Shown in pieces: positions 9,294 to 64,000 of a DNA stretch of 64,000 bases. The stretch's first letter is position 1. Each line of letters starts with the position of its first letter. Origin of the DNA: a virus (Duplodnaviria > Heunggongvirae > Uroviricota > Caudoviricetes); the IMG/VR virus record IMGVR_UViG_2939121850_000001. One strand, given 5' to 3'. Below the pieces are notes generated by a model. It was not told the DNA's origin. It ran no database searches and worked only from the letters and a program-made list of their open reading frames with translations. The position numbers and the translations under genes were made by a program.

Positions 9294-9449
9294 TTACCTT
9301 TCAGATTCGTAGGCTGTGAAGACAGTGACCTCCGTCTGGCCGGTTCGGATTCGTACCTCGCAGAGGTCTTTCCTCGTTACCAGTGCCGTCACAATGACGG
9401 TTAAACAGATGACGATCAGAGCGATTAATATCGCTTTTTGCTGCTTCAT
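9294..9449 (-). CDS. hok: Hok/Gef-family type I toxin (51 aa)
   Basis: Hand translation of minus strand: MKQQKAILIALIVICLTVIVTALVTRKDLCEVRIRTGQTEVTVFTAYESER, near-identical in pattern to E. coli Gef/HokC; SD AAGGAG upstream. Below ORF-track size cutoff. Confidence 0.8.
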   Translation of the reverse strand: MKQQKAILIALIVICLTVIVTALVTRKDLCEVRIRTGQTEVTVFTAYESER

Positions 9450-9507
9450 AGCCTGCTTCTCCTTGACCTTTTGGTCGGTAAGAGGCTAATCTACGTATGC
9501 TAAGCAT
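9301..9507 (-). CDS. mok-like overlapping reading frame
   Basis: 68-aa ORF in another frame starting 58 nt upstream of hok and overlapping it, as in hok/mok/sok loci. Confidence 0.45.
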   Translation of the reverse strand: MLSIRRLASYRPKGQGEAGYEAAKSDINRSDRHLFNRHCDGTGNEERPLRGTNPNRPDGGHCLHSLRI

Positions 9508-9560
9508 AGATATTGCCTCAGATTAATGTTAAGCGTCTTGCAGGACGCGTAATGTTATCT
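9470..9560 (+). ncRNA. Inferred Sok-like antisense RNA region (boundaries not determined)
   Basis: Expected opposite the mok start/hok leader; TTGACC -35-like at 9463. Inference only. Confidence 0.25.
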
Positions 9561-9630
9561 GGGGCTTTCTTCTATCTGCTTTTCGGGTAATGCCTGAAGC
9601 AGATAGCCTCAAGCACCCGCAGCGATTGTA

Positions 9631-13028: not shown

Positions 13029-13077
13029 AGTTACGGCCTCATTCGTAGGTTTAACAACCTGCGCCCCGCTGCTAAAC

Positions 13078-13155
13078 GGGTGGCAGGACGTGACGGGGTT
13101 AGCAGACTGGCACGAATGAAACCAGCAGGCCGAAGCCTCCCCATCACGCCCCACC
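13078..13155 (-). ncRNA. c4: c4 antisense repressor RNA of immI (~78 nt)
   Basis: Minus-strand 5' GGUGGGGCGUGAUGGGGAGGCUUCGGCC...CCACCC 3' with terminal complementarity and UUCG tetraloop hairpin; between Op51 and icd. Confidence 0.55.
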
Positions 13156-13342
13156 ATAATTCGGGCGTAACGTGGTTTTACGGACACAAAAATACCGCAA
13201 TATCGGATATCTGCGGTTGTCCGCATTCGTATTCAGGCTGCTAAACCCGGTCGCAGAATTTGCTACGACGGCGGAACTATAAGCCTGAACGATTAAAAGG
13301 TCAATATGATGCGAAAAGATAGCATTCGCGACTTAAAAATAC

Positions 13343-13359: not shown

Positions 13360-13455
13360 AATTGTATAACAAATACACAAATGGATCTAATAACCTCTTT
13401 TTTTTAAAGGCGAAAATATGTACCCTAAATGGGTTATAAGGCAGGTGAGGTTATA

Positions 13456-14103
13456 ATGAGAAAACTATTACTACCGTTATTATTTATGGCTGGGACTGTT
13501 AATGCAGCATCAAGCGTAAAGGAGATTTGTACCGATTATACGAAATACCTTGGGCACGTTTACGGCTTTGCTGTCAGTCAAGATGAATCCATGCGCAAGA
13601 AGTTACTGTCAGATATGAAACGCCTTAAACTTTCTGAAGCGATGGTGCAGCAAGAACTGTATAAAGTCGCAACCAACGAAAATGCTAAATATCAATATTC
13701 TCGCCTGTTAAATCCCGACGCAAACGAGATCAATCGAAGCTCTTTCGATTATATGGTAAAGGCATGCGAAACCGCTCCTGATTTTGCTATTCCTAGCTGG
13801 GGTGTGCTGGTGGCGAGCAATGCCGTTAATAAAGAAGACGTTGGAAGAAATGGCATTGATTCAATCAGAAACTCCCCGGGAATGCGCCATCAAAACGTTC
13901 AGGGTACGCTTGAAGAACGGGCCAGGGGGCCGGGTACAAACTCCCCAATGGGAAACCTCTCCCCGGAGGAATTGCAAGAGTATAACCAACGGATGGAGCA
14001 GTATGAGAAAGCTGCACGCGAAAAAATGGAACAACAAAAAAACGGATCTCTTAATACTTTCCAGCAAGGTTTAAAAGCGCTTAATTTACCCTATGAATGG
14101 TGA
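13456..14103 (+). CDS. Sim-like periplasmic protein (putative superinfection exclusion) with signal peptide
   Basis: 215-aa ORF from ATG 13456 (MRKLLLPLLFMAGTVNAASS); ~40% GC; internal motif RNSPGMRHQNVQGTLEERARGPGT also found in Sit. Confidence 0.5.
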   Translation: MRKLLLPLLFMAGTVNAASSVKEICTDYTKYLGHVYGFAVSQDESMRKKLLSDMKRLKLSEAMVQQELYKVATNENAKYQYSRLLNPDANEINRSSFDYMVKACETAPDFAIPSWGVLVASNAVNKEDVGRNGIDSIRNSPGMRHQNVQGTLEERARGPGTNSPMGNLSPEELQEYNQRMEQYEKAAREKMEQQKNGSLNTFQQGLKALNLPYEW

Positions 14104-14154
14104 ATATATGGTGGTTAACTAATTAAAATATTAATATCCAAAGGAGATAAATTA

Positions 14155-14631
14155 ATGCGCATCAAACGATTTTTACTAGTTCTTGCTTTGCTTACTCCGT
14201 TTTCATCAATGGCAAATGTAAGCAAATGGTCAACCGGCGAGACTCATGGTGTTCGTTCTTATGCTGTTTCCAGCAAAGATAATTATACGCTTACATTTGA
14301 GTGCGATGTTGGATTTAATAATACGGATCCCAATCAAGTAGGAACACGACTACTCACTCTCATGAAAACAGAACCTGGCGGTGAGTCATTTGATGCTAAA
14401 AAAGAACAAATAACGCTGAAAGTTGGTGATGATGAATATCCTATCAGTTCTATCGGTTCCTCTGTGGGTGATAGTTACTGGTATGGTTTTTGGTCAGATA
14501 CCCCTGATATGGAAGTTAAAACATTCGATGCATACGTAGACGGAAAAAAAATCGCAACATTTACGCTACGTAAGGCCGCAGAGCTTTTCAACGCGGCACC
14601 TGAAGATGGCTGCCTGAAGCGCGCAAAATGA
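14155..14631 (+). CDS. Secreted/periplasmic protein of unknown function
   Basis: 158-aa ORF with N-terminal signal peptide MRIKRFLLVLALLTPFSSMA; ~38% GC. Confidence 0.5.
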   Translation: MRIKRFLLVLALLTPFSSMANVSKWSTGETHGVRSYAVSSKDNYTLTFECDVGFNNTDPNQVGTRLLTLMKTEPGGESFDAKKEQITLKVGDDEYPISSIGSSVGDSYWYGFWSDTPDMEVKTFDAYVDGKKIATFTLRKAAELFNAAPEDGCLKRAK

Positions 14632-23296: not shown

Positions 23297-23731
23297 ATGT
23301 CTGACGTCTCAACAAACCTCTATAAGAGTCAGTTGTTGGACTATTACTATCAGCGGCGCGCTGAATCGTCCATTAACAAAGGCTCTCGATTTTTAATCAG
23401 CAAGGCCGTTTTCGGTACCAGTTCACTGGTTACTAAGAAAGGAGATGGCACTTATGAGATTGGAGAACTGCCAAAGGCTTTCGAGCTGGCAGAACTGACC
23501 AGTAAATTTTGCACCATCAACCTCGTCCCAACCTACTCAGGCGGGATAATTACTGTCCGAATGGACCTTGATCAAAGCCAGTTGCAGAAAGGGAAAAACT
23601 ACCCATTCAACACTCTGGTTGTTCTGGATAACGAGAACAAGCCAATCGCCATTATTTGTGTCCAGGAAGACTCGCTGTATGTGGGCAAAACATATACCGC
23701 AGTTATGGCCATAAACACGACTACAGCATAA
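23297..23731 (+). CDS. Putative tail fiber-associated structural protein
   Basis: 144-aa ORF immediately before the tail fiber gene. Confidence 0.45.
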   Translation: MSDVSTNLYKSQLLDYYYQRRAESSINKGSRFLISKAVFGTSSLVTKKGDGTYEIGELPKAFELAELTSKFCTINLVPTYSGGIITVRMDLDQSQLQKGKNYPFNTLVVLDNENKPIAIICVQEDSLYVGKTYTAVMAINTTTA

Positions 23732-23742
23732 GGATATGCTTG

Positions 23743-26700
23743 ATGAATGACGTTACAGTTGTCACATCGGTTACTTACCCATCACCCGAGTCGTTGGCTC
23801 TGGTGGCTGATGTGCAATACCACGAACCATATCTGTCAGCCGCGCTAAACCGAAAATTCAGGGGAATTGTTGACCCTGGATTTTATGCCGGTTTTTTTCC
23901 TAAGCCTGGCGGTGGGATGAACCTGTTAATCACCTCAGTGGATGGTGATAAAACCGCTGGCGCGGCGTCAGTGAATATTGGTGAATTCTACCAGGTAACT
24001 ATTCAGCAGCGTAAGGATATTTCTCTTGCACTTAGCGCAGGTAAGAAATATGCAATTGTGCTGAAGGGAAGATACCTCCTTGGAGAAGATTCTTATCAGG
24101 TTAATACCGCGTCACATATTCATGCGGCTGAATTTGTTGCCAGAACCTATACCGATTCATATCAGTTAGGAGATGGGGAACTGCTTGTTTGTACGGTGAA
24201 TATCCCTGCTGGCGTATCTGCTATTACTAAGGAAATGATAGATGTATCCGACCGCATCGATCTCGCGATAGGCATTGAAATTTCCGACTCTGTAACCAGT
24301 ACCAGAAGTGATGTCGCTGCAAGTTCGCTGGCGGTTAAAAAAGCCTACGATCTGGCTAAAAGCAAGTATACGGCGCAGGATGCAAGCACAACACAAAAGG
24401 GATTAGTTCAGCTCAGTAGCGCAACTAACAGCGACAGCGAAACAATGGCGGCTACCCCTAAAGCCGTTAAGTCTGTAAAAGAGCTGGCTGATACCAAAGC
24501 GCCAATAGAAAGCCCGAGTCTGACAGGAACGCCAACCGCGCCGACGGCAGCGCAAGGTACAAACAGCACGCAGATCGCAAATACAGCCTTTGTTAAGGCA
24601 GCTATAACGGCACTTATCAACGGTGCACCTGGCACACTGGATACGCTTAAAGAAATAGCGGCTGCGATCAATAACGACCCGAATTTTAGCACAACTATCA
24701 ACAATGCTCTGGCTCTTAAAGCTCCTTTAGCAAGTCCTGCATTAACGGGAATACCTACTGCGCCTACCGCTGCACAGGGTACGAATAACACGCAGATTGC
24801 TACGACCGCTTATGTAAGAGCTGCTATCTCTGCATTGGTCGGCTCATCACCTGAAGCTCTTGATACCCTGAATGAGCTTGCAGCAGCACTGGGCAATGAC
24901 CCGAACTTTGCGACAACAATGACAAATGCGCTGGCAGGCAAACAGCCTCTGGATGCAACTTTAACCGCGCTCGCTGCCCTTGCGACTGGTGCAAACAAAC
25001 TGCCTTATTTCACTGGTAAGGATACGGTAGCGCAGACTGATTTAACGTCAGTCGGTCGCGATATTCTGGCTAAAACAAGCACACTGGCCGTTATCCAATA
25101 CCTTGGTTTAAGAGAACTCGGTACCAGCGGTGAAAAGATCCCCCTGTTGAGTACGGCTAACACATGGAGTGCACGCCAGACTTTCAACGGCGGGATCACC
25201 GGGGCACTGACAGGGAACGCCGACACCGCGACGAAATTGAAAACAGCACGCACGATTGGCGGTGTGGCATTTGATGGCTCGGCCAATATCAACCTTCCAG
25301 GTGTAAATACAACAGGTAACCAGAACACCACCGGGAATGCTGCTACCGCGACAAAACTTGCGACGGCAAGAAACATCAACGGTGTTAAATTTGATGGTTC
25401 AGGGGACGTTAATATCAATACGTTGGTATCACGCGGGCGCGTAACGGCGTTAAGTGGCTCTACTCAGGGTACTGCTGGCATTCAAATGTACGAGGCGTAC
25501 AACAATAGCTACCCGACCACGTATGGCAACGTATTGCACATGAAAGGTGCGAGTGCTGCTGGTGAGGGCGAGTTGCTTATTGGCTGGAGTGGTACGAGCG
25601 GTGCACATGCGCCGGTTTTCATTCGCTCCCGAAGAGATAACACTGATGCGGCATGGTCAGCGTGGGCGCAGGTATATACATCAAGGGACTCCATTCCTGG
25701 TGTGAATGCCACTGGCAATCAGAATACAACTGGCAATGCAGCAACCGCTACAAAACTACAGACGGCAAGAACTATCGGCGGAGTTAGCTTTGATGGTACT
25801 GCGAATATTAATTTACCTGGTGTTAATACGACTGGTAATCAGAATACAACGGGCAACGCTGCAACCGCTACAAAACTACAGACAGCGCGTACAATCAACG
25901 GTGTTAAGTTTGATGGTTCTGCGGACATAACGCTGACTCCTGCGAACCTTGACGTATACAGCAAAAGCGAAATAGACAATAAAAAAGGGATGAGAAAATA
26001 CACTTTTTCAGCGCCTGCAAATGCAGTAAGCGGTAAGTGGTATCCTGTAGTCTTTCGCCGAACTGGTGGTGGCACAGATGAATTAGCCTCACGAGTGGTT
26101 ATCACCACTCATTCCTCAGCTGGCGGATACGCCATGAATAATTGTGAATTTAATGGGTTTGTTATGCCTGGCGGTTGGTCTGAACGCGGTTCATATGCGG
26201 CTGGTTTTTTCGCAATATATTCTACTGCTGAGCGAGCTATACACTCGATTATCGCAAGCGTGAAAGATGATGATTTGTGTAGTGTATTTTACGTTGAGAC
26301 AAGAGCATTCCCTATCCAGATTTTTGCTGAGGAAGGATTAAATGTGATTGTTCCAACGGCTGATTATGCAGTTGGTCAAACCACTTATAAGTGGGGGGCA
26401 ACTGATCCTTTATCAGAAAGTACGAATGCAAAGATAATTTTGGACTTTAAAAATGGACGAGGTTATTACTGTTCACATCCATTTATTTCAAGTCTTTCAG
26501 GAAATGCTGCTACAGCCACGAAATTGCAGACTGCAAGGACTATCGGCGGCGTGGCCTTCGATGGATCTGCGAACATAAATTTGCCTGGTGTAAATACGGC
26601 AGGTAATCAGAATACAACGGGCAACGCGGCTACAGCTACGAAGTTGCAAACTGCTAGAAAAATAAGCGGCGTGTCTTTTGATGGTTCTGCTGATATAACA

Positions 26701-27780
26701 CTAACAGCTGAAAATGTATCTGCTTTTGCTCTACGCGCTACTGGAACTTATGCCGATACTAGTGGTGCGGTCCCGTGGAATGCCGAATCAGGTGCGTATA
26801 ATGTTACACGCTCCGGGGATTCTTATATCGTTGCAAATTTTTATACAGGCGTAGGTAGTTGTCGGACTCTCCAAATCCGAGCGCACCATAAAAATGGTGG
26901 ATTGTATTACCGTTCATCACGTGATGGCTATGGGTTCGAAGAGGGCTGGGCTCAGATATATACTAAAAAAGACAGCATCCCTGGTGTGAATACAACTGGT
27001 AATCAGAACACTACTGGCAATGCTGCAACTGCAACAAAACTGCAAACAGCACGCACAATAGGCGGCGTGTCATTCGATGGCTCCGCCAATATTAATCTTC
27101 CAGGTGTAAACACTACGGGTAATCAGAACACCACTGGTAATGCTGCAACTGCCACAAAACTACAGACTGCACGGAATATCAACGGCGTTCCGTTTGACGG
27201 CACGAAGGATATTACGCTTACGCCTAAAGATCTGGATGCCTACAGCAAAAGCGAAGTACAGAGCGCACTGGCGGGCAAACAACCGCTGGACAATACGCTG
27301 ACTAATTTGAGTGGAAAGGATGTTGCTGGTCTTCTCGCATACCTTCAATTGGGAGAAGCGGCAAAACGGGATGTCGGAGCCGGTAATAATCAACTCCCGG
27401 ACATGTCCGCATTTGGTATGTCGCGAAACGGACAAACTGCCTGGGATATTCTCCCAAATGGTATGATTCGACAGGTTGGCACTGTGACACTGACACCAGT
27501 TGGTAACTTCAACGCGCAGGTGCTTGGTGGGGTGACGTACTACACCCATTACTACAGGGTTAATTTCCCCAGACAATTCCCAAATGCACAAATAGCAACG
27601 CTGGCAACACTAGCGAGTTACAGCTTTTCGACCCAGTCATCAATGGCTGGGAAATCACTGGCAACGCATCGCGATACTGATTCTGGCACTGACGTATCAA
27701 GAACGCGATTCACTGTGTCGTATACGACACCCAATCTCGGCGAAATTCCGACTTTGCATTTTGAAGCAATAGGATACTAA
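23743..27780 (+). CDS. Tail fiber protein (very long, modular)
   Basis: 1345-aa ORF from ATG 23743; repeated collar-like units GNAATATKLQTAR-I-GV-FDGSANINLPGVNTTGNQNTTGNAATATKLQTAR and two paralogous knob-like domains. Confidence 0.8.
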   Translation: MNDVTVVTSVTYPSPESLALVADVQYHEPYLSAALNRKFRGIVDPGFYAGFFPKPGGGMNLLITSVDGDKTAGAASVNIGEFYQVTIQQRKDISLALSAGKKYAIVLKGRYLLGEDSYQVNTASHIHAAEFVARTYTDSYQLGDGELLVCTVNIPAGVSAITKEMIDVSDRIDLAIGIEISDSVTSTRSDVAASSLAVKKAYDLAKSKYTAQDASTTQKGLVQLSSATNSDSETMAATPKAVKSVKELADTKAPIESPSLTGTPTAPTAAQGTNSTQIANTAFVKAAITALINGAPGTLDTLKEIAAAINNDPNFSTTINNALALKAPLASPALTGIPTAPTAAQGTNNTQIATTAYVRAAISALVGSSPEALDTLNELAAALGNDPNFATTMTNALAGKQPLDATLTALAALATGANKLPYFTGKDTVAQTDLTSVGRDILAKTSTLAVIQYLGLRELGTSGEKIPLLSTANTWSARQTFNGGITGALTGNADTATKLKTARTIGGVAFDGSANINLPGVNTTGNQNTTGNAATATKLATARNINGVKFDGSGDVNINTLVSRGRVTALSGSTQGTAGIQMYEAYNNSYPTTYGNVLHMKGASAAGEGELLIGWSGTSGAHAPVFIRSRRDNTDAAWSAWAQVYTSRDSIPGVNATGNQNTTGNAATATKLQTARTIGGVSFDGTANINLPGVNTTGNQNTTGNAATATKLQTARTINGVKFDGSADITLTPANLDVYSKSEIDNKKGMRKYTFSAPANAVSGKWYPVVFRRTGGGTDELASRVVITTHSSAGGYAMNNCEFNGFVMPGGWSERGSYAAGFFAIYSTAERAIHSIIASVKDDDLCSVFYVETRAFPIQIFAEEGLNVIVPTADYAVGQTTYKWGATDPLSESTNAKIILDFKNGRGYYCSHPFISSLSGNAATATKLQTARTIGGVAFDGSANINLPGVNTAGNQNTTGNAATATKLQTARKISGVSFDGSADITLTAENVSAFALRATGTYADTSGAVPWNAESGAYNVTRSGDSYIVANFYTGVGSCRTLQIRAHHKNGGLYYRSSRDGYGFEEGWAQIYTKKDSIPGVNTTGNQNTTGNAATATKLQTARTIGGVSFDGSANINLPGVNTTGNQNTTGNAATATKLQTARNINGVPFDGTKDITLTPKDLDAYSKSEVQSALAGKQPLDNTLTNLSGKDVAGLLAYLQLGEAAKRDVGAGNNQLPDMSAFGMSRNGQTAWDILPNGMIRQVGTVTLTPVGNFNAQVLGGVTYYTHYYRVNFPRQFPNAQIATLATLASYSFSTQSSMAGKSLATHRDTDSGTDVSRTRFTVSYTTPNLGEIPTLHFEAIGY
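25200..27225 (+). repeat. Four in-frame copies of a ~230-bp tail fiber module
   Basis: Copies near 25200, 25690, 26500, 26975; protein near-identical, DNA differing mainly at synonymous sites; AT-rich unique domain at ~25980-26500 interrupts the series. Confidence 0.7.
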
Positions 27781-27782
27781 AT

Positions 27783-28016
27783 ATGGAGAATATGTATTTC
27801 AGCCCAACGACCGTTGGTTTTTATGTTTCTGAACAAGAGCGACCTGATGATGCGGTTGAAGTCTCGCCAGAGGTGGAGGCATTTTTGAGGGAGTGTGTTA
27901 TCTGGGGAGCGGATACATTTAACGTAGAGCGAGATGCAGCAACGGTGACATATCCAACAGAACTGCTTGAATATGTCACCACCTACAACGCCCCCGTTAA
28001 ATATCCTGCGGATTGA
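27783..28016 (+). CDS. Small tail fiber-associated protein (possible truncated assembly chaperone)
   Basis: 77-aa ORF 3 bp after tail fiber stop; 3' end overlaps convergent tfa remnant. Confidence 0.4.
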
Positions 28017-28327
28017 CAGGCCATACGGGTTTTGCTGTATCAACGCGCATCAGCAGGATCCGGCATTTCTTCGATTCAGAAAGCGCGGCGGTTTCCTCAT
28101 CCGTCGCGATACCGGCATCAACCGCATCCTATCGCCAGGCGATTTCAGAGTCCGCTTGAGCCTTTAAGCTTAATTTCCTGGCTTCTGCAATAGCCATTAG
28201 CTCTTCTTTCGTTGGAGGAGGAACATCCCCCCATGCGGGTTGTCCATTCTCTCCGCAAATACGTATTTTTCCTTCCGGTGGCGTCTGAGTAAAGCAGTGT
28301 TTTGGTCATTTGTTGATACGCGTACAT
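27997..28327 (-). pseudogene. Decayed tail fiber assembly (tfa-like) gene in inverted orientation
   Basis: Hand translation gives ...GENGQPAWGDVPPPTKEELMAIAEARKLSLKAQADSEIAWR-(TAG)[43 protein letters not shown]; a frameshift separates it from its ATG at 28327. Confidence 0.5.
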
Positions 28328-28467
28328 AGCCTATTAGCATATTTTCTGCTCACTATCGTTATTTATAGCAAGCTGCGGATTTTAATTAACAAAAACCAGT
28401 ATGTGTGGAAATCACAAAGTACATACCGTTTCCCAATGATATTTAATTCACTATTAAGGAAATAGTT

Positions 28468-28749
28468 ATGTGTGATTTCACAATAATGCTCCTCTCCATC
28501 CTTGGCGGGGTGCATTCGTTTCTGAATGGGGTTCGTGAAAAACGTTACGAAGCGTCATGCAGGCAATTGATGGCCGAGTGTATTGCTGCCGTACTTGCAG
28601 GCTTTATAGGCATGTATTTCGCGGAATATAAGGGTATGGATGAAAGTCTTCAGAATTGCGTGACTATTATTTGCAGCATCAATAACAGGCTCATTCTTGA
28701 AAAGTTACAAAGGATTATCGATTCGCACCTCAATAGAAATGCCTCTTAA
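28468..28749 (+). CDS. Small membrane protein (possible holin/antiholin-like)
   Basis: 93-aa ORF, one clear TM segment CIAAVLAGFIGMYFA; AT-rich; upstream of lydA. Confidence 0.4.
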   Translation: MCDFTIMLLSILGGVHSFLNGVREKRYEASCRQLMAECIAAVLAGFIGMYFAEYKGMDESLQNCVTIICSINNRLILEKLQRIIDSHLNRNAS

Positions 28750-28769
28750 GCAACAAATGACCGGTTGAG

Positions 28770-41087: not shown

Positions 41088-41707
41088 ATGAACAAGCTAT
41101 CTATGGGGGTGTTTCGCTGTTCAAGTGTCAGCGAAATATTGAAATACATTAGGGCAATAACATCTCACCGAGCGCCGATTAAATATGGCGTGGAAAAGGT
41201 GGAAGGCAAAAGCTATGACCGACTGCGCCGGGAGGCGAATCAGAAGGCGATAGATTTGCTTAATTCGCTGGTGGACGGCGCGACACTGACAGATGAACAG
41301 CGCCAGATCCTGGCTGGGTACACCGGTGAAGGCGGCATTGGCGGGTCCGTCTCCGAATATTACACACCAAAGCCGATCGCTGAAGGTGTCTGGGAGATCA
41401 TGAAGCTCTACGGCGCGGACGTAGGTAACACTCTGGAACCATCGGCGGGAACCGGCGTTTTTAATGAGACAAAACCGGTTGGTACGGTGATGACCGCGAC
41501 TGAGATCAGCAGTGTTTCCGGTCGTATAAACCAGTTGTTACACCCGGAAGACAGCGTACAGATTTCCCCGTTCGAACAGCTGGCTGTAAGCACGCCTAAC
41601 GATTCATTCGACCATGTTGTGGGTAACGTTCCGTTCGGCGGTCGTGATAACACACGCAACATCGATAAGCCTTACGCAGAAGAAACGGACATGGGTTCTT
41701 ACTTCAT
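41088..41707 (+). pseudogene. darB: darB 5' fragment (methyltransferase-like N-terminus), cut by IS insertion
   Basis: Track ORF 41088-41717 reads into the IS inverted repeat and stops at TAG 41715; contains EPSAGTGVF and NVPF motifs. Confidence 0.75.
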
Positions 41708-44700
41708 GGGGTTCTAGGGATTTTCCGTCCAAAAACGACAAAGTGCTCTGGAGGCCGCGCCGTCCGTGGCCTCCAGAGGGGTATTACTTTTCGCTGACGG
41801 GTAAATATCCCTCGATTGAGCGCATAAGCTCCTCCAGATCTGGCAATTTTTCGCTCAATTCGAAGTGGTAAGTCCCCTTGAGGTTAATGTTGTGCCAGGC
41901 CACAGGGGATGCCTGTTTGACGATATCTATTCTCTTGGTATCTCCTTGGTATTCGAAGCTGGTCAACAGCTGGCTGAGTATCCTGGAGTTGAAGTAAACG
42001 ATGGCATTGGTGACCAGGCGAGCGCACTCATTCCATAGCTGGATTTCTTCGTCTGAACTGCCCCGGAACTGATCCCCATTGACGCTGCTCACGGCCCGAC
42101 GCAGTTGGTGATAGGCCTCTCCCCGGTTCAGCGCGCGCTGAACATAGTTTCTTAAACTGGCATCATCGATGTAGCACAGTAGATAATTCGCTTTCACCAG
42201 GCGATTGTATTCCGTCAGGGCTTCCAGCAGCGGGTGATTGCGCTTGTACTCCGAGAGCTTTCTCACCAAGGTGGCTTGCGTTGTTTTCCGCTGCTTAAGT
42301 GATACTGCAATCCGTTGGATGGTATCCCAGTGCTGCGCAATACGATGGGTATTGATTGGCTTTTTTAAGCACAGCTGAATTCGGTGTTCTTTGTCTTCCT
42401 TGACATCAAACATGTCATTGATCACTTTGCCAACCTGGGCATAGCGTGGGGCAAACTGGTATCCGAACAGATCCAGTAACGCGAAGTTCACATGGTTCAC
42501 CCCATGGGTATCGGTTGAGAGCACATCCGGAATGATGTCTGACGTATTGCTCATCAACAAATCAAAGATGTAGTGCGATTCATGTTCGTTGGCGCCGATC
42601 ACTCTGGCGTTGATCGCAGCGTGATTGGCGATCAAGGTCATGGCAGAAACACCTTTTTGAGTGCCAAAGTACTTCGACGAATAACGGGTTTTGAAGGTCT
42701 CGCGCCGGGCTTCGAACTTTTGACCATCGGCACTGGCGTGGATCACATCTTCCTGGATGTTGTAGTACCGGAAGATGGGTAGCTTGGCTGTCGCGTTATT
42801 GATGTTGTCGTTAGCAGCATTCAATGTTTCCAGGCGAAGATAGTTCGCCTGGATAGTGCTGAGCTGATCATAGGTACGATCAGAGATCTGTGCCATGCCG
42901 TAAATGCCTTGATTGGTTGCATTGCCGACCAGAATTGCCAACAGGTCATATTCATGGGAACGGCTTCTGGATTGGGAACCCAGCACATGAGCGAAGCAGT
43001 CAATGAAACCGGTGTCACGATCAACCATGCGCAGTACATCCGCAATCCCCGTTGTGGGAATTTGCTGGAAGAAGGGATTGTTGACCAGATGATGTTTGCT
43101 GGCCGAAGGCAGGCGCCAGAAGCGTTTACCCTGCGGATTACGCAAGATGATATTCCGGTTGTCTTCCTGTTCAAGATATTCGCCGACTTCGTACAAACGG
43201 GTATCCAATTCCATGGCCATCTGTTTGATCAGCTTTTCAGGCTCCTCCGCTAATTTTGTAAAATGGCTCTGTTGAAGCAGCGTATATTTGTTTTTTCGCC
43301 AATGTTCCCCGTCGATCAGGTCGGCGTCGAGTGCCCGGTATTTAGTGATATCAGGCAGCGTCAGCTGGCCATTCAGGCGATCAGGAATCTGTTGATAGAG
43401 GAACCACTCATAACGATCGATCAGGATATTCCCTTCACCATCCAGCAGGAATTCACGTGATTTTTTGGAAAGGAGTCTGGTGTCGGCAGTTTGCAACTGA
43501 GCGTCCTGGCCGTTGAGTTCGTTTTGTGTTTTCGCCAAGGCGGCCGCTAAGTGCTGGGTGCCGTCGCAGCCTTCGAAGCGCAGACATAGGAACAACTCTC
43601 GCAGCAAACCTTTCCGCAGACTTTCTTTCTCGTCGCAGTACTGCCACATGGCTTCATCGACCGATCGTCGCTGCTCGTTCAGGAAGAGACATACAGATTC
43701 CAGATCCCTTTTGGTCAGCAGGCTCAGTGCTTGCTGTCTTACTGTTGCAAACGGTAGTTGCAGATCAATGCTGTCATCAATGAACAGGTGCAGTACTTCA
43801 GCTGCCTTGCTGACATTTTTAGCTGCTTTTTGCCAATCCTTAAACACCGCTTCCTGCGCATAATCCTTTGCCTTCTGTTTGGTCTGTCTGACATGATGCA
43901 CAAAGCCATCGGCAATACGTTCCAGCGCTTGCTGCCATCGCGTTTGAAGATAGCACAATAAATACAGCCATTGGCTGCCTACGGTTTGACGTTTCAGTTT
44001 GGCACCGTAGTAGTCGACTTTCTCTGCCAGGTGTTGCAGATTTTTCTGCGACAGTGATAGCGTGCTCAACAGCAGATCCACTTCCGGCATCCAATGCTGG
44101 ATATGGCGATAGACAATCAGTTCTTTCTCCAACTCGGTTCCGGTGAAGTTACGAGCCGATTGTCGCAACTGTCGGAACGGCAGTGGACCTGTGCCGTTCA
44201 CGAGCTCCGCCAGTGCTTGCTTAAGACCGCGTGACATTGCACGCTCAAGGTGCGCGGCCATGTGTTCCTGTTCGTCTCCCACCACCTGACTGATGATCTT
44301 TTGCAGCGTGCTGTAGGCAGGGATTGCGATCTTCTGCCCCGAACAATATTCATTGGCCGCATCGAAGAGGTGCCTAGGCGCTGTCCAGGCTCTGGCTTGC
44401 TGGGATAAGTAATCTCTCAACGCCGCTCCATGGTCTTTGACATTCCAGCGCTGGTAGTTGCAGAGCTGGAAAACACGTTGGTAAATCCGTTCGTTCTCTT
44501 TTGGCGTGAGATTAAAGGGTCTACAGCCTGGGCCTGGTAGAACGGTTTGATAAACGTATTTGAGGTCCTGCTTGATCTGATGAAAGCCGGGATTCAGCAC
44601 CACCGGCTTGGCTTTGAAATAGCCCAGCAGTACCACCAGCATGTAACGCTGGCCCCGATGACGGAGGCTTTTAGCGATCGCCAGTTCCTTATCGTTCAGC

Positions 44701-44942
44701 GAGAAAAAGAAGCGTTGGTCGGCGGAGGTGAAAGCGGGGGGTCCATATAACTCATCTTGTTCTGCCTCGGACAAGATTTGGACACGTTCTTCGAATGCCA
44801 TGGATTTAGCCCAAAAAGACTAAATCTTACTCAAACAGAGCCCAAATAGGGATCTCGAAAAAAGTAATACCCCTCTGGAGGCCACAGACGGCGGGGCCTC
44901 CAGAGCACTTTGTCGTTTTTGGACGGAAAATCCCTAGAACCC
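41708..44942. mobile_element. Tn3-family insertion sequence (transposase only, ~3.2 kb) with ~88-bp terminal inverted repeats
   Basis: Both ends begin GGGGTTCTAGGGATTTTCCGTCCAAAAACGACAAAGTGCTCTGGAGGCC; 5-bp direct repeat TTCAT at 41703-41707 and 44943-44947. Confidence 0.8.
41784..44801 (-). CDS. tnpA: Tn3-family transposase TnpA
   Basis: Intact 1005-aa ORF filling the element; N-terminus MAFEERVQILSEAEQDELYG... typical of Tn3-family transposases. Confidence 0.85.
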   Translation of the reverse strand: MAFEERVQILSEAEQDELYGPPAFTSADQRFFFSLNDKELAIAKSLRHRGQRYMLVVLLGYFKAKPVVLNPGFHQIKQDLKYVYQTVLPGPGCRPFNLTPKENERIYQRVFQLCNYQRWNVKDHGAALRDYLSQQARAWTAPRHLFDAANEYCSGQKIAIPAYSTLQKIISQVVGDEQEHMAAHLERAMSRGLKQALAELVNGTGPLPFRQLRQSARNFTGTELEKELIVYRHIQHWMPEVDLLLSTLSLSQKNLQHLAEKVDYYGAKLKRQTVGSQWLYLLCYLQTRWQQALERIADGFVHHVRQTKQKAKDYAQEAVFKDWQKAAKNVSKAAEVLHLFIDDSIDLQLPFATVRQQALSLLTKRDLESVCLFLNEQRRSVDEAMWQYCDEKESLRKGLLRELFLCLRFEGCDGTQHLAAALAKTQNELNGQDAQLQTADTRLLSKKSREFLLDGEGNILIDRYEWFLYQQIPDRLNGQLTLPDITKYRALDADLIDGEHWRKNKYTLLQQSHFTKLAEEPEKLIKQMAMELDTRLYEVGEYLEQEDNRNIILRNPQGKRFWRLPSASKHHLVNNPFFQQIPTTGIADVLRMVDRDTGFIDCFAHVLGSQSRSRSHEYDLLAILVGNATNQGIYGMAQISDRTYDQLSTIQANYLRLETLNAANDNINNATAKLPIFRYYNIQEDVIHASADGQKFEARRETFKTRYSSKYFGTQKGVSAMTLIANHAAINARVIGANEHESHYIFDLLMSNTSDIIPDVLSTDTHGVNHVNFALLDLFGYQFAPRYAQVGKVINDMFDVKEDKEHRIQLCLKKPINTHRIAQHWDTIQRIAVSLKQRKTTQATLVRKLSEYKRNHPLLEALTEYNRLVKANYLLCYIDDASLRNYVQRALNRGEAYHQLRRAVSSVNGDQFRGSSDEEIQLWNECARLVTNAIVYFNSRILSQLLTSFEYQGDTKRIDIVKQASPVAWHNINLKGTYHFELSEKLPDLEELMRSIEGYLPVSEK

Positions 44943-44946
44943 CTTC

Positions 44947-47900
44947 ATGCTCCGCATGCTGGACAAAATAAAGACAGGCGGATTCATGTGCGTGATTGTG
45001 CCGCCGTCCATTGTTTCAGGTTCAAACATGAAGCGGTTACGCCTGCGCCTATCACGGAAAGCTGAATTTCTTGGTGCCCACCGCCTGCCTACCGGTACTT
45101 TTGACGCAAACGGGACCAGTACGGTCGTAGATGTGGTGCTGATGCGCAAACATCCGGCAGAGATGGCTGAGAAAATCCCCCTGGTGGATGAAAGCACTCT
45201 TGAATCGGCAAATGTGCTTTGGCCAACGTTTATTTCTGGCAAGTGGTTTGAAAAGGATGGCCGCCGGTTTGTTCATGGCACCCAGGAAAAGGGCTTCCAG
45301 GGGCGTATTGAGGTTCGTGCCGACGGTCAGATTGATAACCAGGCTCTTAAAGCGAAGCTGATTCATCGTTTCGAAAGCCGTATCGACTGGTCTTTGCTCG
45401 ATATGGCTGAACCGTCACCGACCGCAGACGTTGTTGGTGAAGGGGAAATGCGCCTGATTAATGGCGTATGGCAAAAATATGCTGGTGGTCGCTGGATTGA
45501 AGCTGATGCCGGGAAGGAACTTAAGATCGATGCTGCCAGTTATGGCGCGGATAGCTGGGAGGCTCTTCAGCGTAACCTGACTACAACAGAAGGCCGTCTC
45601 GGCATGACATTTACCCAGATGGCAAATGTCCGCGATAAGTACACCACATCAATCAGCGACGATATGGTGCAGCTGGTGGACTGGATTAACAGCCAGCCTG
45701 AAAAATACCGTGAACGCTTGTATCGCGGGGCGATGATTGGCCGGATGTTAATTGAATATCAGGACATGAAGGCCGCCGGGCATAGTGCTGAACAAATCGA
45801 ACAGCAGCGCCTTTCTCTGGTATCCCGTTTGCAGGCAGAGATTGACCGTTTTGGTAACCCCGGTCGCGGTCCGATAGCGAAATTATCGGGGAGCGGTGCG
45901 CGCGCCTGGTTTGCTTTCCGTGGTGCAATTAAGCTGGATGGCACTATTTCTGACGAGCTGACAGGAAAGCTGGTTACGCATGATTCCAGCGCAAGTTATG
46001 ACTCCACCAGCTATCAGGACACCCTGCGTTATCTCTACAGTGATCTCACTCGCGATCCAATCCAGCTCGATGATTTCCGCCTTGCGTTTACCGGCGAACT
46101 GCCAGCCAGTGATGAAGAGTTGCTTAATTTATTGGCCAGCACCCCTGGTATTGCGGTTTCACCGTATGGCGGGATTGTTCCGTTCGCCCGCGCCACCAGC
46201 GGCGACATTAACGAGATAGTGGCTCCAAAACAGGAATTCCTCGCCACGCTCCCCGACGGTCCAGTAAAGAACAACGTCCTTAATCAGCTGGCAGCGATCG
46301 AAGAGAAGCGCATCAAGACGCCAGCAGAGAATATCCGGTTTAAGCTCAATAGCCGTTGGTTCGACCGTTCCGTCATTCTGGAATTTTTGCAGGAAAACGG
46401 CTATCCGGATCTGCGCTATGTGCAGTCAGTGCAGCTTGAAGGCGACGAAATGGTTTCTGACACCTATCACGGTGGTGATGGTCTGTTCGTCGGGCACCGA
46501 TACGGTGTCGTCCAGCGCAAGGATAAAGAAACAGGCGAGATCCGCTACGAGTGGGACCGTAAATCAGGTGAAAACGCGACCGGGTTCCCGGCACAGCTGG
46601 AAAAGTATCTCAATGGTGCGCGTATCGGTGGCAAAGATAGCGCGACGGCGAACGGCTACCGCGAGCAGATGGCACTGCTTGAGGACCAGTTCAATAAGTG
46701 GATCAAGACGCACGATCGCTACGATGAGCTGGTTGCCAAATACAACGATGTTTTCAATAGCAATATCCCGTATGAACACTCTGGCGATCCGCTTGGGTTG
46801 AAGGGATTAAGCGGTAAGCGACAGCCATTTGATTACCAGAATAGCGAGGTGCGCCGACTGTCCGAAGATGGGCGCGGCATCCTGGGCTTCGGTACCGGGC
46901 TGGGTAAAACCACGACCGCGCTGGCGCTTGAGGCGTTCAACTATGAGAACGGTCGTTCCACCCGTACTGCGTATGTAGTGCCTAAATCAGTGCTGGAAAA
47001 CTGGTATTACGAAGCAAAAGAGTTTCTGAGTGAAGAGGCATTCAGTAACTACCTGTTCGTCGGTCTTGATGTGCTGATGGATGGCGATCAGATTCGCCAG
47101 GTGCCGGTGCTCGATGAGAACGGTAAACCTGTCGTTGGTGCAGATGGCACTCCCGTTATGCGCGATGCCCTTAAGCTGGCAGATGAAGCCACTATCACGG
47201 CGCGGATGAACGCGATCCCGCACTCAAACTACCGTGCAGTCGTGTTTACCAAAGAACAATACGCCCGCATTCCGCTACGTGATGACACCGTAGATGAGCA
47301 TGCACAAGACATGCTTTATGACTTCGTTGCTGCCGGGCGTGTGGCCAGCGCAATGGACTCCGATTCCCATCGCAAAGAGGCGGCGCGTCGCCGGGTATTG
47401 TCGGAGTATTCAGATACCGGTACCGAAAAAGCAGAGAAGTATCCGTACTTTGAGGATATGGGCTTCGACAGCGTGATTGCTGACGAAGGCCACAACTACC
47501 GCAATAGCTATAAAAATGGTCGCGAAGCGTCACAGCTGGCCTATCTGCCCACCAGCGCGGTGGCGCAATCGGCGCGAGATATGGCAATCAAAAACGCGTA
47601 CCTGATGAAAAAGAATGGTGGGCGTGGACCGGTTCTCCTGACTGCAACGCCAGTCGTTAACACCCCGATCGATGCATACAACATGCTTTCTCATGTTCTG
47701 CCGAAGGAATACTGGCAGAAGATGGGGATCTACGGTCCTGATGACTTCGTTAAATTCTTCGGCAAGACCAGGCTGGAAACGGTACAGAAAATCAGCGGTG
47801 AAGTTGAAGAAAAAATGGCGCTGGTGGGCTTTGAAAACCTTGATGCGCTGCGCGGCATATTCCATCGCTGGACAACGCTTAAAACGGCGGAAGACGTTAA

Positions 47901-58296: not shown

Positions 58297-59330
58297 TTAT
58301 TCAGCCGCCACCGGTTTTAACAAGCCAGCATCGAGCAGTTTACGCGTCAACCACTGTTGGCCTTTCCCCGTTAATTGGGGCGTCAGCCGTATCTGGTAGC
58401 CCTCTTCATCATCCAGCACCACTTCTTTCACTGTGAAATATCCGGCGTTTATGTACTGCTGGAACGGTACATTTTTACGGCCGCCGGACGCTATCAGAAT
58501 GCCGTTCTCCCGTAACCAGGCAAACAGCGCATTTTGTTTAAGTCCAACGACCTTTGCAAAATTCCCAATCAGGATCCCCTTAGCCACTGATACCCGGTCG
58601 GCAAAATCGACTTTGGGGGCTGCGGCCACCAGCTGCTGATTTAGCTGATGGGCTTTCTGTTCCAGAAGTTGCTTTTGTTCGGCCAGTTCGGCAGCCAGGC
58701 GGAGGGCTTCTGGGAGTGTCTGGGGGATTGCGATCGGTTGCTGTTCTTTTTGTCGGAAGTAGCTGTCTTCCAGTTTTTCAAAGAATGCCCACGCTTCATT
58801 TGTGTCCACGATCTTAGACATGCGTGCCGCTCCGCGCTCGGCCCAGAGAATTACCTGACTTGTATATTTGCTAACCAAGTGACTAATAGTCACTAGCCTT
58901 TTAAATTCCTTTAATTTTGAACCAGTTAAGAGATAGTAATGCTTACCTTCTTCAAAGCGATCGGGGTTGCGAGACAGATTTTTACGAATATTCGCTTCAT
59001 CGGTCCCATACCCCTTAGCAAGAGTCTCAGTTGTCACTACACGCACTCCCAGCCATTCCAGAACGGGAATTTCATCAGGCTGATTTTGAGCAACCACCAG
59101 CTCTGATTCCTGAACTGAAGGTGCATGAGTTTTTTCTGATTTAACGTTAGTTGCTTTCATTCTGTGTGCCTCCTTGCGTGTTTCGGCTGCGACGGTTGCG
59201 TAATTCAGATGACCCTGTTCGAGCAGGTATTCGCGGATATCAGACAACAGGATACGGTGAACCGCGTTCTTGTCCTTTCTCCGGTAAAGTTGTTTGGTGA
59301 TCATGAAGTAGTTGGCAATAACGCCTGGTA
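58297..59330 (-). pseudogene. Second antirepressor (ant-like) gene, 3' part, separated from its start by IS10
   Basis: C-terminus near-identical to Ant at 11767-12810; reading frame continues up to the IS10 junction. Confidence 0.75.
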
Positions 59331-60659
59331 CTGAGAGATCCCCTCATAATTTCCCCAAAACGTAACCATGTGTGAATAGATTTTGAGTAAGCAGGGTTGC
59401 AGCCACGAGTGAGTCTTCCCTTGTTATTGTGTAGCCAGAATGCCGCAAAACTTCCATGCCTAAGCGAACTGTTGAGAGTACGTTTCGATTTCTGACTGTG
59501 TTAGCCTGGAAGTGCTTGTCCCAACCTTGTTTCTGAGCATGAACGCCCGCAAGCCAACATGTTAGTTGAAGCATCAGGGCGATTAGCAGCATGATATCAA
59601 AACGCTCTGAGCTGCTCGTTCGGCTATGGCGTAGGCCTAGTCCGTAGGCAGGACTTTTCAAGTCTCGGAAGGTTTCTTCAATCTGCATTCGCTTCGAATA
59701 GATATTAACAAGTTGTTTGGGTGTTCGAATTTCAACAGGTAAGTTAGTTGCTAGAATCCATGGCTCCTTTGCCGACGCTGAGTAGATTTTAGGTGACGGG
59801 TGGTGACAATGAGTCCGTGTCGAGCGCTGATTTTTTCGGCCTTTAGAGCGAGATTTATACAATAGAATTTGGCATGAGATTGGATTGCTTTTAGTCAGCC
59901 TCTTATAGCCTAAAGTCTTTGAGTGACTAGATGACATATCATGTAAGTTGCTGATAGGTTTCCAGTTTTCCGCTCCTAGGTCTGCATATTGTACTTTTCC
60001 TCTTACTCGACTTAACCAGTACCAACCCAGCTTCTCAACGGATTTATACCATGGCACTTTAAAGCCAGCATCACTGACAATGAGCGGTGTGGTGTTACTC
60101 GGTAGAATGCTCGCAAGGTCGGCTAGAAATTGGTCATGAGCTTTCTTTGAACATTGCTCTGAAAGCGGGAACGCTTTCTCATAAAGAGTAACAGAACGAC
60201 CGTGTAGTGCGACTGAAGCTCGCAATACCATAAGCCGTTTTTGCTCACGGATATCAGACCAGTCAACAAGTACAATGGGCATCGTATTGCCCGAACAGAT
60301 AAAGCTAGCATGCCAACGGTATACAGCGAGTCGCTCTTTGTGGAGGTGACGATTACCTAACAATCGGTCGATTCGTTTGATGTTATGTTTTGTTCTCGCT
60401 TTGGTTGGCAGGTTACGGCCAAGTTCGGTAAGAGTGAGAGTTTTACAGTCAAGTAAGGCGTGGCAAGCCAACGTTAAGCTGTTGAGTCGTTTTAAGTGTA
60501 ATTCGGGGCAGAATTGGTAAAGAGAGTCGTGTAAAATATCGAGTTCGCACATTTTGTTGTCTGATTATTGATTTTTGGCGAAACCATTTGATCATATGAC
60601 AAGATGTGTATCTACCTTAACTTAATGATTTTGATAAAAATCATTAGGGGATTCATCAG
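59331..60659. mobile_element. IS10 (1329 bp) with 9-bp target site duplication CGCCTGGTA
   Basis: Ends CTGAGAGATCCCCTCATAATTTCCCC and CTGATGAATCCCCTAATGATTTT (reverse complement); direct repeats at 59322-59330 and 60660-60668. Confidence 0.95.
59344..60552 (-). CDS. IS10 transposase
   Basis: 402-aa ORF MCELDILHDSLYQFCPELHLKRLNSLTLACHALLDCKTLTLTELGRNLPTKARTKHNIKRIDRLLGNRHL... recognised as IS10 transposase. Confidence 0.95.
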   Translation of the reverse strand: MCELDILHDSLYQFCPELHLKRLNSLTLACHALLDCKTLTLTELGRNLPTKARTKHNIKRIDRLLGNRHLHKERLAVYRWHASFICSGNTMPIVLVDWSDIREQKRLMVLRASVALHGRSVTLYEKAFPLSEQCSKKAHDQFLADLASILPSNTTPLIVSDAGFKVPWYKSVEKLGWYWLSRVRGKVQYADLGAENWKPISNLHDMSSSHSKTLGYKRLTKSNPISCQILLYKSRSKGRKNQRSTRTHCHHPSPKIYSASAKEPWILATNLPVEIRTPKQLVNIYSKRMQIEETFRDLKSPAYGLGLRHSRTSSSERFDIMLLIALMLQLTCWLAGVHAQKQGWDKHFQANTVRNRNVLSTVRLGMEVLRHSGYTITREDSLVAATLLTQNLFTHGYVLGKL

Positions 60660-60747
60660 CGCCTGGTATATCCCTGGTACTGATACAGGCAGTGTGCTGT
60701 TCAATTGCCTCGATCATCTCTTCACGGGTGACTAATGACGTTCTCAT
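60660..60747 (-). pseudogene. ant-like gene 5' fragment (first ~29 codons)
   Basis: ATG at 60747 with SD; encodes MRTSLVTREEMIEAIEQHTACISTRDIPG, paralogous to Ant N-terminus. Confidence 0.7.
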
Positions 60748-60965
60748 AGTCCCTCCTGAGCAGAAGCGTTAACAGGGAGGCACCAGTAACTGAGAGAATT
60801 GCGTGAATCAGTGGAAAAACGGGCAGAGAAAATACATGGGGCGTCAGGAAGCTGAGAGCGGGCCTCATCTTCTGTTGGTGCAATAACGAAGTGATAGTGA
60901 CGTTTTTGGCAGGAGTAAAAGCGCCAGATAAATTCAGGATGAGTTGGGGTAGGGATAGTAGCCAT
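60744..60965 (-). CDS. Second Icd-like protein (73 aa)
   Basis: MATIPTPTHPEFIWRFYSCQKRHYHFVIAPTEDEARSQLPD...; SD AAGGAGG; stop overlaps ant-like start. Confidence 0.6.
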   Translation of the reverse strand: MATIPTPTHPEFIWRFYSCQKRHYHFVIAPTEDEARSQLPDAPCIFSARFSTDSRNSLSYWCLPVNASAQEGL

Positions 60966-61025
60966 ATTGGCAGCCTCCTTAGACGTTGGTATGTAACCAC
61001 CGCAGAAGAGACCAATCTTGCTGGC

Positions 61026-61101
61026 GGTGGACTGTACGGAGTTGGCCTTACTGGCGTCCAAGGTAACCAGCCTACCCGAAGGTAGCCCCATACAGCCCAC
61101 C
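61026..61101 (-). ncRNA. Second c4-like antisense RNA (~76 nt), sequence-divergent from copy 1
   Basis: 5' GGUGGGCUGUAUGGGGCUACCUUCGGGUAGGCUGG...UACAGUCCACC 3'; same architecture as 13078-13155. Confidence 0.45.
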
Positions 61102-61283
61102 ATTGTAGAGGTGTGCGTGTACGCCGATACAAAAAAAGACGCGAGCGGCGTCTGTATCGCCTTAGACTTAAGCGGGAGGCCAATCCCGGCACCCGTTTTA
61201 ATGAGGTGCCTGATAAGCATAAACCGAAAATGCCACAAGGCGCAAGAGGTCAGGTTCAATGTAACATCGGTAGCTAAAAAACA

Positions 61284-61300
61284 CAATTTATTAGAGCAAA
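61284..61300. promoter_or_regulatory. C1 operator at the promoter of the second immI-like module
   Basis: CAATTTATTAGAGCAAA. Confidence 0.55.
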
Positions 61301-61303
61301 TAT

Positions 61304-62788
61304 TCATTCATTAAGCCATGCCAGAGCTTCATCAACCTGCGCTTCGTCTTCGACGCTAAGCCCTTCATCCTGGGGAACATAATCCGCCAGCATAGCGAAA
61401 CAATATGTATCCCAATGGTCTGGTGAGTGCAGGTTGAGTTTTTTCTTCATATCCTCCTTACTCATCACCTTCCATTGACCTGCGGAGTTAATCCCTACAG
61501 GGATTTTCGACGCTTCCTCAATAGTTTCATTACCCTTATCCAGTCTCATACGACCAGATTTTACGGCCTCTGCGGCTTGAACATTGGCATAAGCACGTTT
61601 ATCAAAGTACAGGCTCTTATCTTCACGGCTATGCATCTTTTTACCCCAGCGTATACGCTGTACGGTAATACCATAATACTCGTACATCAGATCCGCCGTT
61701 GCTTTACCCAGGCCATCGCCGTCTATCGCTATGGTGATATTGGGGAATCGCTCAGGATTACATTCTGCGAAAATTTTGGCGGCAAGCTGCGTTTCTGTAA
61801 CGTCTGTGTATTCCAGCATTCGATAGTTGATTACACGGCGTTTATTTCGCTGGCCGGACACCATCATGATATTGATAACGGACTTATCCCGTCCCGTACC
61901 ACCAGCAACGTCCACACATGCAAGCCAGCCCCATCCTTTTGCAATCTTGACTTTCCGCCGCGTTGCACGTTCAACCTCATCACGTCCAAGAAGGAAGCCA
62001 TCCTGTGATTTAGGGAATAGGCCGCGTACCTTAATCATGTACATAGGGTTATCACGCCCGCCGTACTCCGCCAGCTTCATTTTGATAAATGCTGGCGTTA
62101 CCAACGGTGATTCCTCACTGTTAAGCGTGATCGCCGTATAAACGCCATCAGGGTTACCAGGACGCTTGGCCAGTTTATGGTGTGTATCGTAGAAATAGCC
62201 GCTTGGGCGTGTAGGCTGTGACAGCAATAAGATGCGGTTATCCTGTCCGGTAAGAGCACCGGTGATGATACCGAAAGCTCTATCACTGACACCGGAGGCT
62301 TCATCGATAATATACAGAAGATGATCTGCGTGTTCACCGGCGAGAGCTTCTTCACTTCCCAGACGAAAGCCCTTCGGTACTACAGTCCATACACCTTTAC
62401 CAGTAACCTCATAGAAAGCGGTTTCTGTCAGAACAAAATAATCAGCAAGCCATGGGAAACGGCTGGTGGCAGTAGCCCAGTTTATCTTGATGTACTTGAA
62501 TATACCGGTCATTACCTGCTGAATTTTGTTCGCAACGATAATGGCACGGGCACCTGGATACATGATTATGAACAACATGATCATGATAGAAGTCATGTCT
62601 GATTTCCCGGTACCGTGACCAGACGAAACAGATGTCTTGCTACCCTGTTCCTGCACAGACTCAATAATCAGATCCTGCTGCCAGGTAGGTGTTTTGCCGA
62701 ACAAAACATCAGCGGCAGCAATCCAGTCATAACGATATAGCGCCACCAGCTCGCGCCAACGTGGATCCGTTACGCAACTTCTGGCCAT
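61304..62788 (-). CDS. pacB: Terminase large subunit PacB
   Basis: 494-aa ORF; Walker A SGHGTGKS and Walker B-like [11 protein letters not shown]. Confidence 0.8.
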
Positions 62789-63981
62789 TAATCATCATCC
62801 CCGTATAGCTTGCGGGTAACTTCTTCGTCTTCCTCCTCGTCTTCGTCCAGGTCTTGTTCCAGCCATGGGTCGTTTGATACACCTTCAGTATCAACATCTC
62901 CATAACCGCCTGTATCAACAATATCGGCGATTTCTTCCCTACGCTGCTCAATCCACAATGCGGCATCGGCGCGGCGGTTGGCGGCCCGTTCTCGCGCAAC
63001 TTTGTCCAGATCTTCAAGAGAAGGGCCACCGACGGCTGTTTGCCTTTCCTCATCATCGGTATTGGTCTTAGGAGCACGCAGATCGGCTTTGATTTGCTCC
63101 AGCATCAGGGGCGGAACTTTCCCGCCATGCGCCTCGATGAATTCAGCTGCTTCCAGCACTGACCAGTTATTTTCACGCTTTCGTTCGTATGCCAGTTTAA
63201 CAATGCCAGCTTGCCCCATAGACAAAGCGTGCTTTTCCGCCTCCCGGCTTTCTTTTCGATAGTTATTCCGGATGCTGTAAATGGTGTTGATCAGGCTGCT
63301 TATCTGCGCGGAACAGCTGTTTAGCATGCTCGCGATACGGTATTCAGGCGGAGTTCCTTCATCATCGTCTTTTTGCTGATCGCGCATTTCCTGAACCAAG
63401 CGAATACACGTATCCCTGGCGTTCTCCAGCATAAGGAGATGAGAGAGAGACTTTTCCAGAAGAGTGGTTTCCAGAACATCAGCCCCGGACCGACGCAACA
63501 TAGCGCGCGCGGCCTTCCGCGCTTCAACGTTATCTATCAGGTAATCGCCAGCTTCGAATTCAAAGCGTTCACCATCATCATCCAGGGTGTCGCGTTCCAG
63601 GCGATCACGTAAGGTCCGGTGGGCGCGGGTGATCACGTCATGATCATCAGAACGATCATTTATGCGCTTATTCTGGCGCTTCGCGTTCTCGACTGCGGCA
63701 CTGACAACAGCATTAACTCTTTGTTTTTCAGCCATTTCAGCCACAACGTGATCACCTGCACGTTGATCATTAGCGTGATCAATGATCATGCTTTTTAGTG
63801 GTTTTCTGACAGGCTTATTTGGCTTACGGCTGTCCGCTGTTCCGGTGTCTTCTTTGAATGCACGGAGATAACGACGTGCGGTGTTTGGGTTGAGATTAAA
63901 CTCGGCGGCATATTGTGCGATGGTGTAACCACCATCTCGCGCCAGGCGAGCAAAATTCTTCTTGTGATCGTCCCAGGTCAC
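62788..63981 (-). CDS. pacA: Terminase small subunit PacA (pac site within coding region)
   Basis: 397-aa ORF overlapping pacB start by 1 nt; contains TGATCA hexamer clusters. Confidence 0.75.
63600..63790. other. pac: pac packaging site: two clusters of Dam-methylatable TGATCA/G hexamers
   Basis: GATCAC, TGATCAC, TGATCAT, CGATCAT at 63603-63657 and TGATCAC, TGATCAT, TGATCAA, TGATCAT at 63742-63782. Confidence 0.65.
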
Positions 63982-64000
63982 TTATGCTTCCTTTCGTATA

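Follow-up and report, generated by a model that had tools for sequence, protein, structure and literature searches.

The window, as we call the whole 64,000-nt stretch of DNA analysed here, belongs to a P1-like phage-plasmid (Punavirus), and the DNA on both sides of the insertion described below is ~96-98% identical to P1, P7, SJ46, RCS47, JL22, and many Escherichia coli plasmids. Between pacB and c1, it carries a module whose elements follow one another on the same strand in the order isrK-like RNA, C4 RNA, icd-like gene, and ant-like gene, the last of which is split in two by a copy of IS10 (Table 1). In relatives, the icd-like gene is annotated as "host cell division inhibitor Icd-like protein".

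Table 1. Features of the insertion site, of the surrounding module, and of the second insertion sequence in the window (positions refer to the window)
Feature	Position	Strand	Details
IS3000 in darB	41708..44943	-	Tn3 family, 3236 bp; TTCAT at 41703-41707 and 44944-44948
3′ fragment of ant-like gene	58297..59330	-	ORF6N (aa 117-200) and KilAC/ANT (aa 258-359)
Ant2-like internal in-frame ORF	58297..59160	-	Intact; 287 aa from M84
Left target-site duplication CGCCTGGTA	59322..59330	.	9 bp, read from sequence
IS10 (assigned to the IS10-Left allele)	59331..60659	-	1329 bp; outside end 60659, inside end 59331
Inside-end terminal inverted repeat	59331..59353	.	Dam site GATC at 59337-59340
Transposase gene	59344..60552	-	402 aa; DDE triad D97/D161/E292
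Reported outward promoters pIII and OUTIIp	59430..59660	-	IS10 nt 1000-1230 (PMC11481808); faces ant remnant; promoters putative here
RNA-OUT antisense RNA	60545..60614	+	Rfam RF00240; outward, towards outside end
GATC overlapping pIN region	60590-60593		Within IS10
Outside-end terminal inverted repeat	60637..60659	.	
Right target-site duplication CGCCTGGTA	60660..60668	.	9 bp, read from sequence
5′ fragment of ant-like gene	60660..60747	-	nt 1-88; 29 codons plus 1 nt
icd-like gene	60744..60965	-	Intact; 73 aa; stop overlaps ant start (ATGA)
C4 antisense RNA, second immunity module	61020..61107	-	Intact; Rfam RF01695, 75.9 bits vs gathering score 45
isrK-like RNA	61132..61209	-	Rfam RF01394, 60.8 bits vs gathering score 50; terminator-like hairpin 61153-61137

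When IS10 is removed from the sequence, a minus-strand ORF of 370 codons is restored whose product matches the Pfam domains ANT (3.3e-31) and ORF6N (8.6e-17) and is 56% identical, N-terminal region included, to the Ant1 protein of the window's own immI locus (11767-12810). The annotation of JL22 calls the restored gene roi and that of RCS47 calls it ant; in NZ_LR890336.1, it is listed as a KilAC antirepressor gene. Judged by these matches, the interrupted gene is an Ant1-like antirepressor gene, and one that we class as accessory rather than as part of the P1 core. With its C4 match of 75.9 bits, an icd-like gene that overlaps the ATG of ant, and an antirepressor of this domain content and resemblance to immI Ant1, the module has the predicted makeup of a P1 immI-type C4/icd/ant unit. 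Its C4 region shares ~71% column identity with the primary immI C4 region (13076-13161), which suggests that the second module has an immunity specificity of its own. An extra ant gene between pacB and c1 has been noted for pTZ20_1P and RCS47, and P1 itself is without a second antirepressor at this position (Venturini et al. 2019, PMC6906374).

The inserted element has the length of 1329 bp and the imperfect ~23-bp terminal inverted repeats that mark membership in IS10 of the IS4 family: the inside end reads CTGAGAGATCCCCTCATAATTTC (from 59331) and the outside end, as the reverse complement from 60659, CTGATGAATCCCCTAATGATTTT, with matches at 17 of 23 positions. The transposase gene is the sole long ORF inside the element, its product matches Pfam DDE_Tnp_1 (1.5e-24), and the DDE residues, numbered D97, D161, and E292 in the IS10 transposase, are all in place. 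RNA-OUT is represented at full length (model positions 1-70 of 70), with 97.3 bits where the gathering score is 41. There are only two GATC sites in the element, at IS10 nt 67 and nt 1320, corresponding to the Dam positions at pIN and at the inside end. The initial annotation had called a complete 1329-bp IS10 with an intact 402-aa transposase, and the exact length, both terminal repeats, the DDE triad, and RNA-OUT all bear this out.

Two copies of CGCCTGGTA directly abut the ends of the element, so that the perfect 9-bp duplication claimed at the outset is indeed there, in the size that IS10 generates. The chance of a matching 9-mer at a fixed position is ~4^-9 = 4e-6; elsewhere in the 64 kb, CGCCTGGTA occurs once, at 33275. 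As to the choice of target, IS10 prefers NGCTNAGCN, with the hot-spot consensus GCTNAGC, although this is a preference rather than a requirement and non-preferred sites are also known to be used. The site occupied here, C-GCC-T-GGT-A, agrees with the consensus at three of its six specified positions and thus departs from it. Of the defining features of IS10 open to a test by sequence, target-site preference is the sole exception; all others are present.

The uninterrupted state of the locus can be read from relatives. Window positions 59003-59330 and 60660-63998 map to positions 26114-25787 and 25795-22457 of NZ_LR890336.1, where they overlap by exactly 9 bp. Once the IS and one repeat copy are taken out, the restored 100-nt junction is identical to NZ_LR890336.1 at 100 of 100 positions, with a single CGCCTGGTA; JL22 and RCS47 each differ from it by one SNP, located inside the 9-mer. 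In PLSDB, 323 plasmids run without interruption across a 600-nt version of the restored junction. Taken together, a duplication around one IS and flanks that are collinear with uninterrupted relatives exclude a composite-transposon boundary at 59322-60668, and the earlier proposal of simple transposition by a single IS10, rather than a composite Tn10, holds on the same two grounds. Within the 64-kb window, the Tn10 interior from R100 (jemABC, tetR/A/C/D) gave no blastn match, there was no other 20-mer of IS10, and no pair of inverted IS10 copies encloses jemABC-tetR-tetA-tetC-tetD. The second IS10 and the tet/jem DNA, which had been sought as signs of a composite element, are thus missing from the window, and their absence points to a simple solo insertion.

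The partner of a composite transposon, be it Tn10 or another IS10-bounded unit, might lie outside the window and leave the present copy as one arm: roughly 35 kb of the replicon extend beyond the window, and many plasmids with the identical allele carry the whole of Tn10. At such a boundary, however, one would expect foreign DNA on one of the two sides and no matching repeats around a single arm, whereas here one copy stands between the two 9-bp repeats, the sequences on either side of it run on as contiguous P1-like DNA in relatives, and neither tet/jem DNA nor any other IS10 fragment is found in the 64 kb. We regard this explanation as barely credible.

Alternatively, the insertion could be an artefact, if IS10 hopped in while the DNA was grown in a laboratory strain with Tn10, or if the assembly put an IS copy in the wrong place. 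IS10 is a known contaminant of clones from Tn10-carrying laboratory strains. Copies of it in cloning strains have been described (PMC11148124), and the junction had no counterpart in the collections searched: the exact left junction had no place covering at least 80% of the query in PLSDB or in complete E. coli genomes, and both junctions, searched as exact patterns, returned 0 matches in GTDB representative genomes. Yet misassembly would not yield a perfect 9-bp duplication at the exact IS ends, the plasmid has a further, private insertion, of IS3000, that is typical of clinical Enterobacterales, and wild E. coli commonly carry this IS10 allele (a match in 1902 of 5426 genomes), all of which makes an artefact very improbable. 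In sum, the 9-bp duplication being exact and the flanks collinear, we reject a composite Tn10, a misassembly, and an arrival by homologous recombination alike.

Comparison with other plasmids also informed us about the origin of the allele. Copies that match the element at 100% over all 1329 nt are present in R100, pCP301, pHCM1, and many other plasmids; many plasmids with a 100%-identical IS10 have it in two places, representing a whole Tn10. In R100, the Tn10 copy next to gltS/jemA is the one with 100% identity, and the copy next to tetD stands at 98.87%, with 15 mismatches. To assign these copies to IS10L or IS10R, we relied on the R100 annotation, in which PGAP labels both as "ISVsa5 family", together with the published Tn10 gene order IS10L-jemABC-tetR-tetA-tetC-tetD-IS10R (PMC5571418, PMC9412624). 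Identity to the gltS/jemA-side copy, combined with this order, identifies the window copy as the IS10-Left allele and not IS10-Right, an assignment made by sequence comparison.

IS10-Left is classically regarded as weak or inactive (PMC11148124, PMC5571418), for which reason another IS10 copy in the host could have been the source of the transposase. A de novo IS10L insertion is nonetheless on record (PMC11481808). Of 5426 complete E. coli genomes, 1902 contain IS10-like sequence, and 100%-identical IS10-Left copies reside in E. coli chromosomes, single-copy records included; this suggests that the allele is mobile in nature. As a side observation, some E. coli genomes have up to 45 IS10-like places. 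For annotators, the practical message is not to presume IS10-Right when a solo IS10 copy is met, given that the "defective" IS10-Left is found here as a clean solo insertion.

With a probability of roughly 0.93, we hold that a single IS10-Left copy moved alone, by cut-and-paste, into a P1-like phage-plasmid, and that the accessory antirepressor was lost or strongly reduced as a result. According to the established IS10/Tn10 mechanism, the transposase would have bound both terminal repeats and excised the element, which would then have been joined to a target cleaved with a stagger of 9 bp; the CGCCTGGTA duplication would have resulted when this stagger was repaired. The insertion is an ordinary, well-understood event of a kind already known.

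As for its consequences, the insertion lies after nt 88 of the ant-like coding sequence, cutting the start codon, the Shine-Dalgarno sequence (GGAGGG, 4 nt upstream of the ATG), and 29 codons off the rest of the gene. The native start now opens a 41-aa ORF (60622-60747) of 29 native and 12 IS-encoded residues, and the remaining 341 codons are separated both from the promoter of the module and from the coupling to icd. Because start, Shine-Dalgarno sequence, promoter, and icd coupling are all lost, a full-length antirepressor cannot be made; the 370-aa Ant1-like product is destroyed.

Whether this amounts to the knockout of a phage function, as initially annotated, depends on what is meant. A phage gene is interrupted, and for its full-length protein the term is accurate. 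As a statement of complete loss it goes too far, since the C4 RNA, the icd-like gene, and an Ant2-like ORF with its AAGGAGG survive, and the gene that was hit encodes an accessory second antirepressor, not a core phage function. Complete loss of antirepressor function is likely rather than certain, because the intact Ant2-like ORF with its strong Shine-Dalgarno sequence remains beyond the inside end. P1 makes Ant2 from an internal start. In the restored protein, M84 aligns with the RRM-site methionine of the primary Ant1, which we take to be the position where P1 starts Ant2; both Pfam domains are downstream of M84, and the AAGGAGG (59175-59169) is located 8 nt before the ATG at 59160. The net effect would be that the extra antirepressor is lost or strongly reduced while the C4 RNA and Icd of the module are kept, an outcome that would either make no difference to the plasmid-prophage state or stabilise it mildly. 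Predictions of prophage inducibility should consequently not count the insertion as a loss of the main P1 immunity circuit.

A different outcome could arise if the remnant were transcribed from within the element. Outward read-through from pIII and OUTIIp, which lie within IS10 nt 1000-1230, has been reported for an IS10L insertion (PMC11481808). If these promoters acted in the same way here, they would transcribe the ant remnant, and translation of the Ant2-like ORF from M84 would provide a low level of a constitutive, truncated antirepressor free of C4/icd control. The transposase gene and the remnant run in the same direction, which turns the inside end towards the remnant; the insertion left intact the Ant2-like ORF with its Shine-Dalgarno sequence, and both Pfam domains are downstream of it; and IS10 nt 904-1248 are identical to IS10R. 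A simple scan for consensus sigma-70 promoters, however, found no promoter-like site to match pIII or OUTIIp on the minus strand of the stretch scanned, and both promoters are described as weak. Moreover, a constitutive antirepressor would be expected from P1 biology to destabilise lysogeny, yet the element seems to be a maintained plasmid. We consider such rewiring unlikely.

Slightly more doubtful still is the combined scenario in which C4 and Icd are kept and immunity is retained, Ant1 is abolished, the Ant2-like ORF is placed under weak constitutive pIII/OUTIIp, and IS10-Left moves autonomously. If correct, this would alter how the phage-plasmid responds to superinfection or induction, and it would provide an example from nature of IS10-Left, held to be defective, moving on its own. 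At the other end of the element, pOUT points out of IS10, antisense to the icd-like gene; any effect on this gene is speculative.

The loss or strong reduction of the accessory antirepressor that we favour is not the only gene disruption in the window. As the initial annotation had indicated, a second, unrelated IS interrupts another phage gene: IS3000, flanked by a 5-bp duplication (TTCAT), sits in the antirestriction gene darB, where it separates an N-terminal ORF of 209 aa from the remaining 2049 aa. The element encodes a 1005-aa TnpA (DDE_Tnp_Tn3, 1e-129), and its terminal repeats match at 49 of the 50 positions compared. A search of PLSDB found neither the darB::IS3000 junction nor a sister lineage with IS3000 but without IS10. 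Conversely, NZ_LR890336.1 has an IS200/IS605-type TnpB (insQ) element, at the point corresponding to window position 32454/32455, that is absent from the window, which shows that closely related P1-like plasmids do not all have the same IS content. IS traffic in P1-like phage-plasmids is already well described (PMC6906374). The IS10 insertion is one more IS-mediated gene disruption in such an element, with little importance beyond annotation.

Three regions of the window (25284-28756, 13674-14628, and 1-1316) showed no megablast match to the closest plasmid. The first is mostly inside a 1374-aa ORF (23656-27780), and positions 1-861 encode a Rep3-type replication initiator; the ORF at 13429-14103 has a weak match to PTP-like phytase. 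Their appearance is that of variable cargo or host-range regions rather than of IS elements. In addition, a sok antitoxin RNA of the hok/sok type was recognised on the minus strand at 9444-9618 (114 bits vs Rfam).

Set against known systems, the inserted element is closest to IS10-Left of Tn10 in R100/NR1 (NC_002134.1, 36132-37460), with which it shares all 1329 nt and hence terminal repeats, 402-aa transposase, RNA-OUT, and Dam sites. The R100 copy is an arm of Tn10, whereas that of the window is solo, has its own 9-bp duplication, and resides in a P1-like plasmid. IS10-Right, the reference active copy, has the same organisation and DDE triad but differs by the 15 substitutions counted above. 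Six of these fall in the first 107 nt (IS10 nt 24, 25, 27, 47, 83, and 107), of which nt 83 belongs to the stretch matched by Rfam RNA-OUT (IS10 nt 46-115) and nt 107 immediately precedes the ATG; at the protein level, there are four amino-acid changes (V266I, L381S, A389T, and A398V). The nearest parallel for the insertion is pSvP1, a P1/P7-like plasmid from porcine ETEC, in which IS10 likewise interrupts a gene of a P1-like plasmid and is flanked by a 9-bp direct repeat (Venturini et al. 2019, PMC6906374). There, the target is nmpC and the repeat is TGCTCTGCA, marking an independent event.

The module itself follows the P1 immI operon (c4-icd-ant1/ant2) in having a C4 RNA, an icd-like ORF that overlaps the start of ant, and an Ant1-like gene with an in-frame Ant2-like start. 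It differs from the primary immI in what precedes C4, where an isrK-like RNA replaces the a1b1 match (c4-a1b1). RCS47 and JL22 carry an extra ant module at the same position between pacB and c1; in comparison with these two and with pTZ20_1P, the window stands out by an ant gene that is interrupted.
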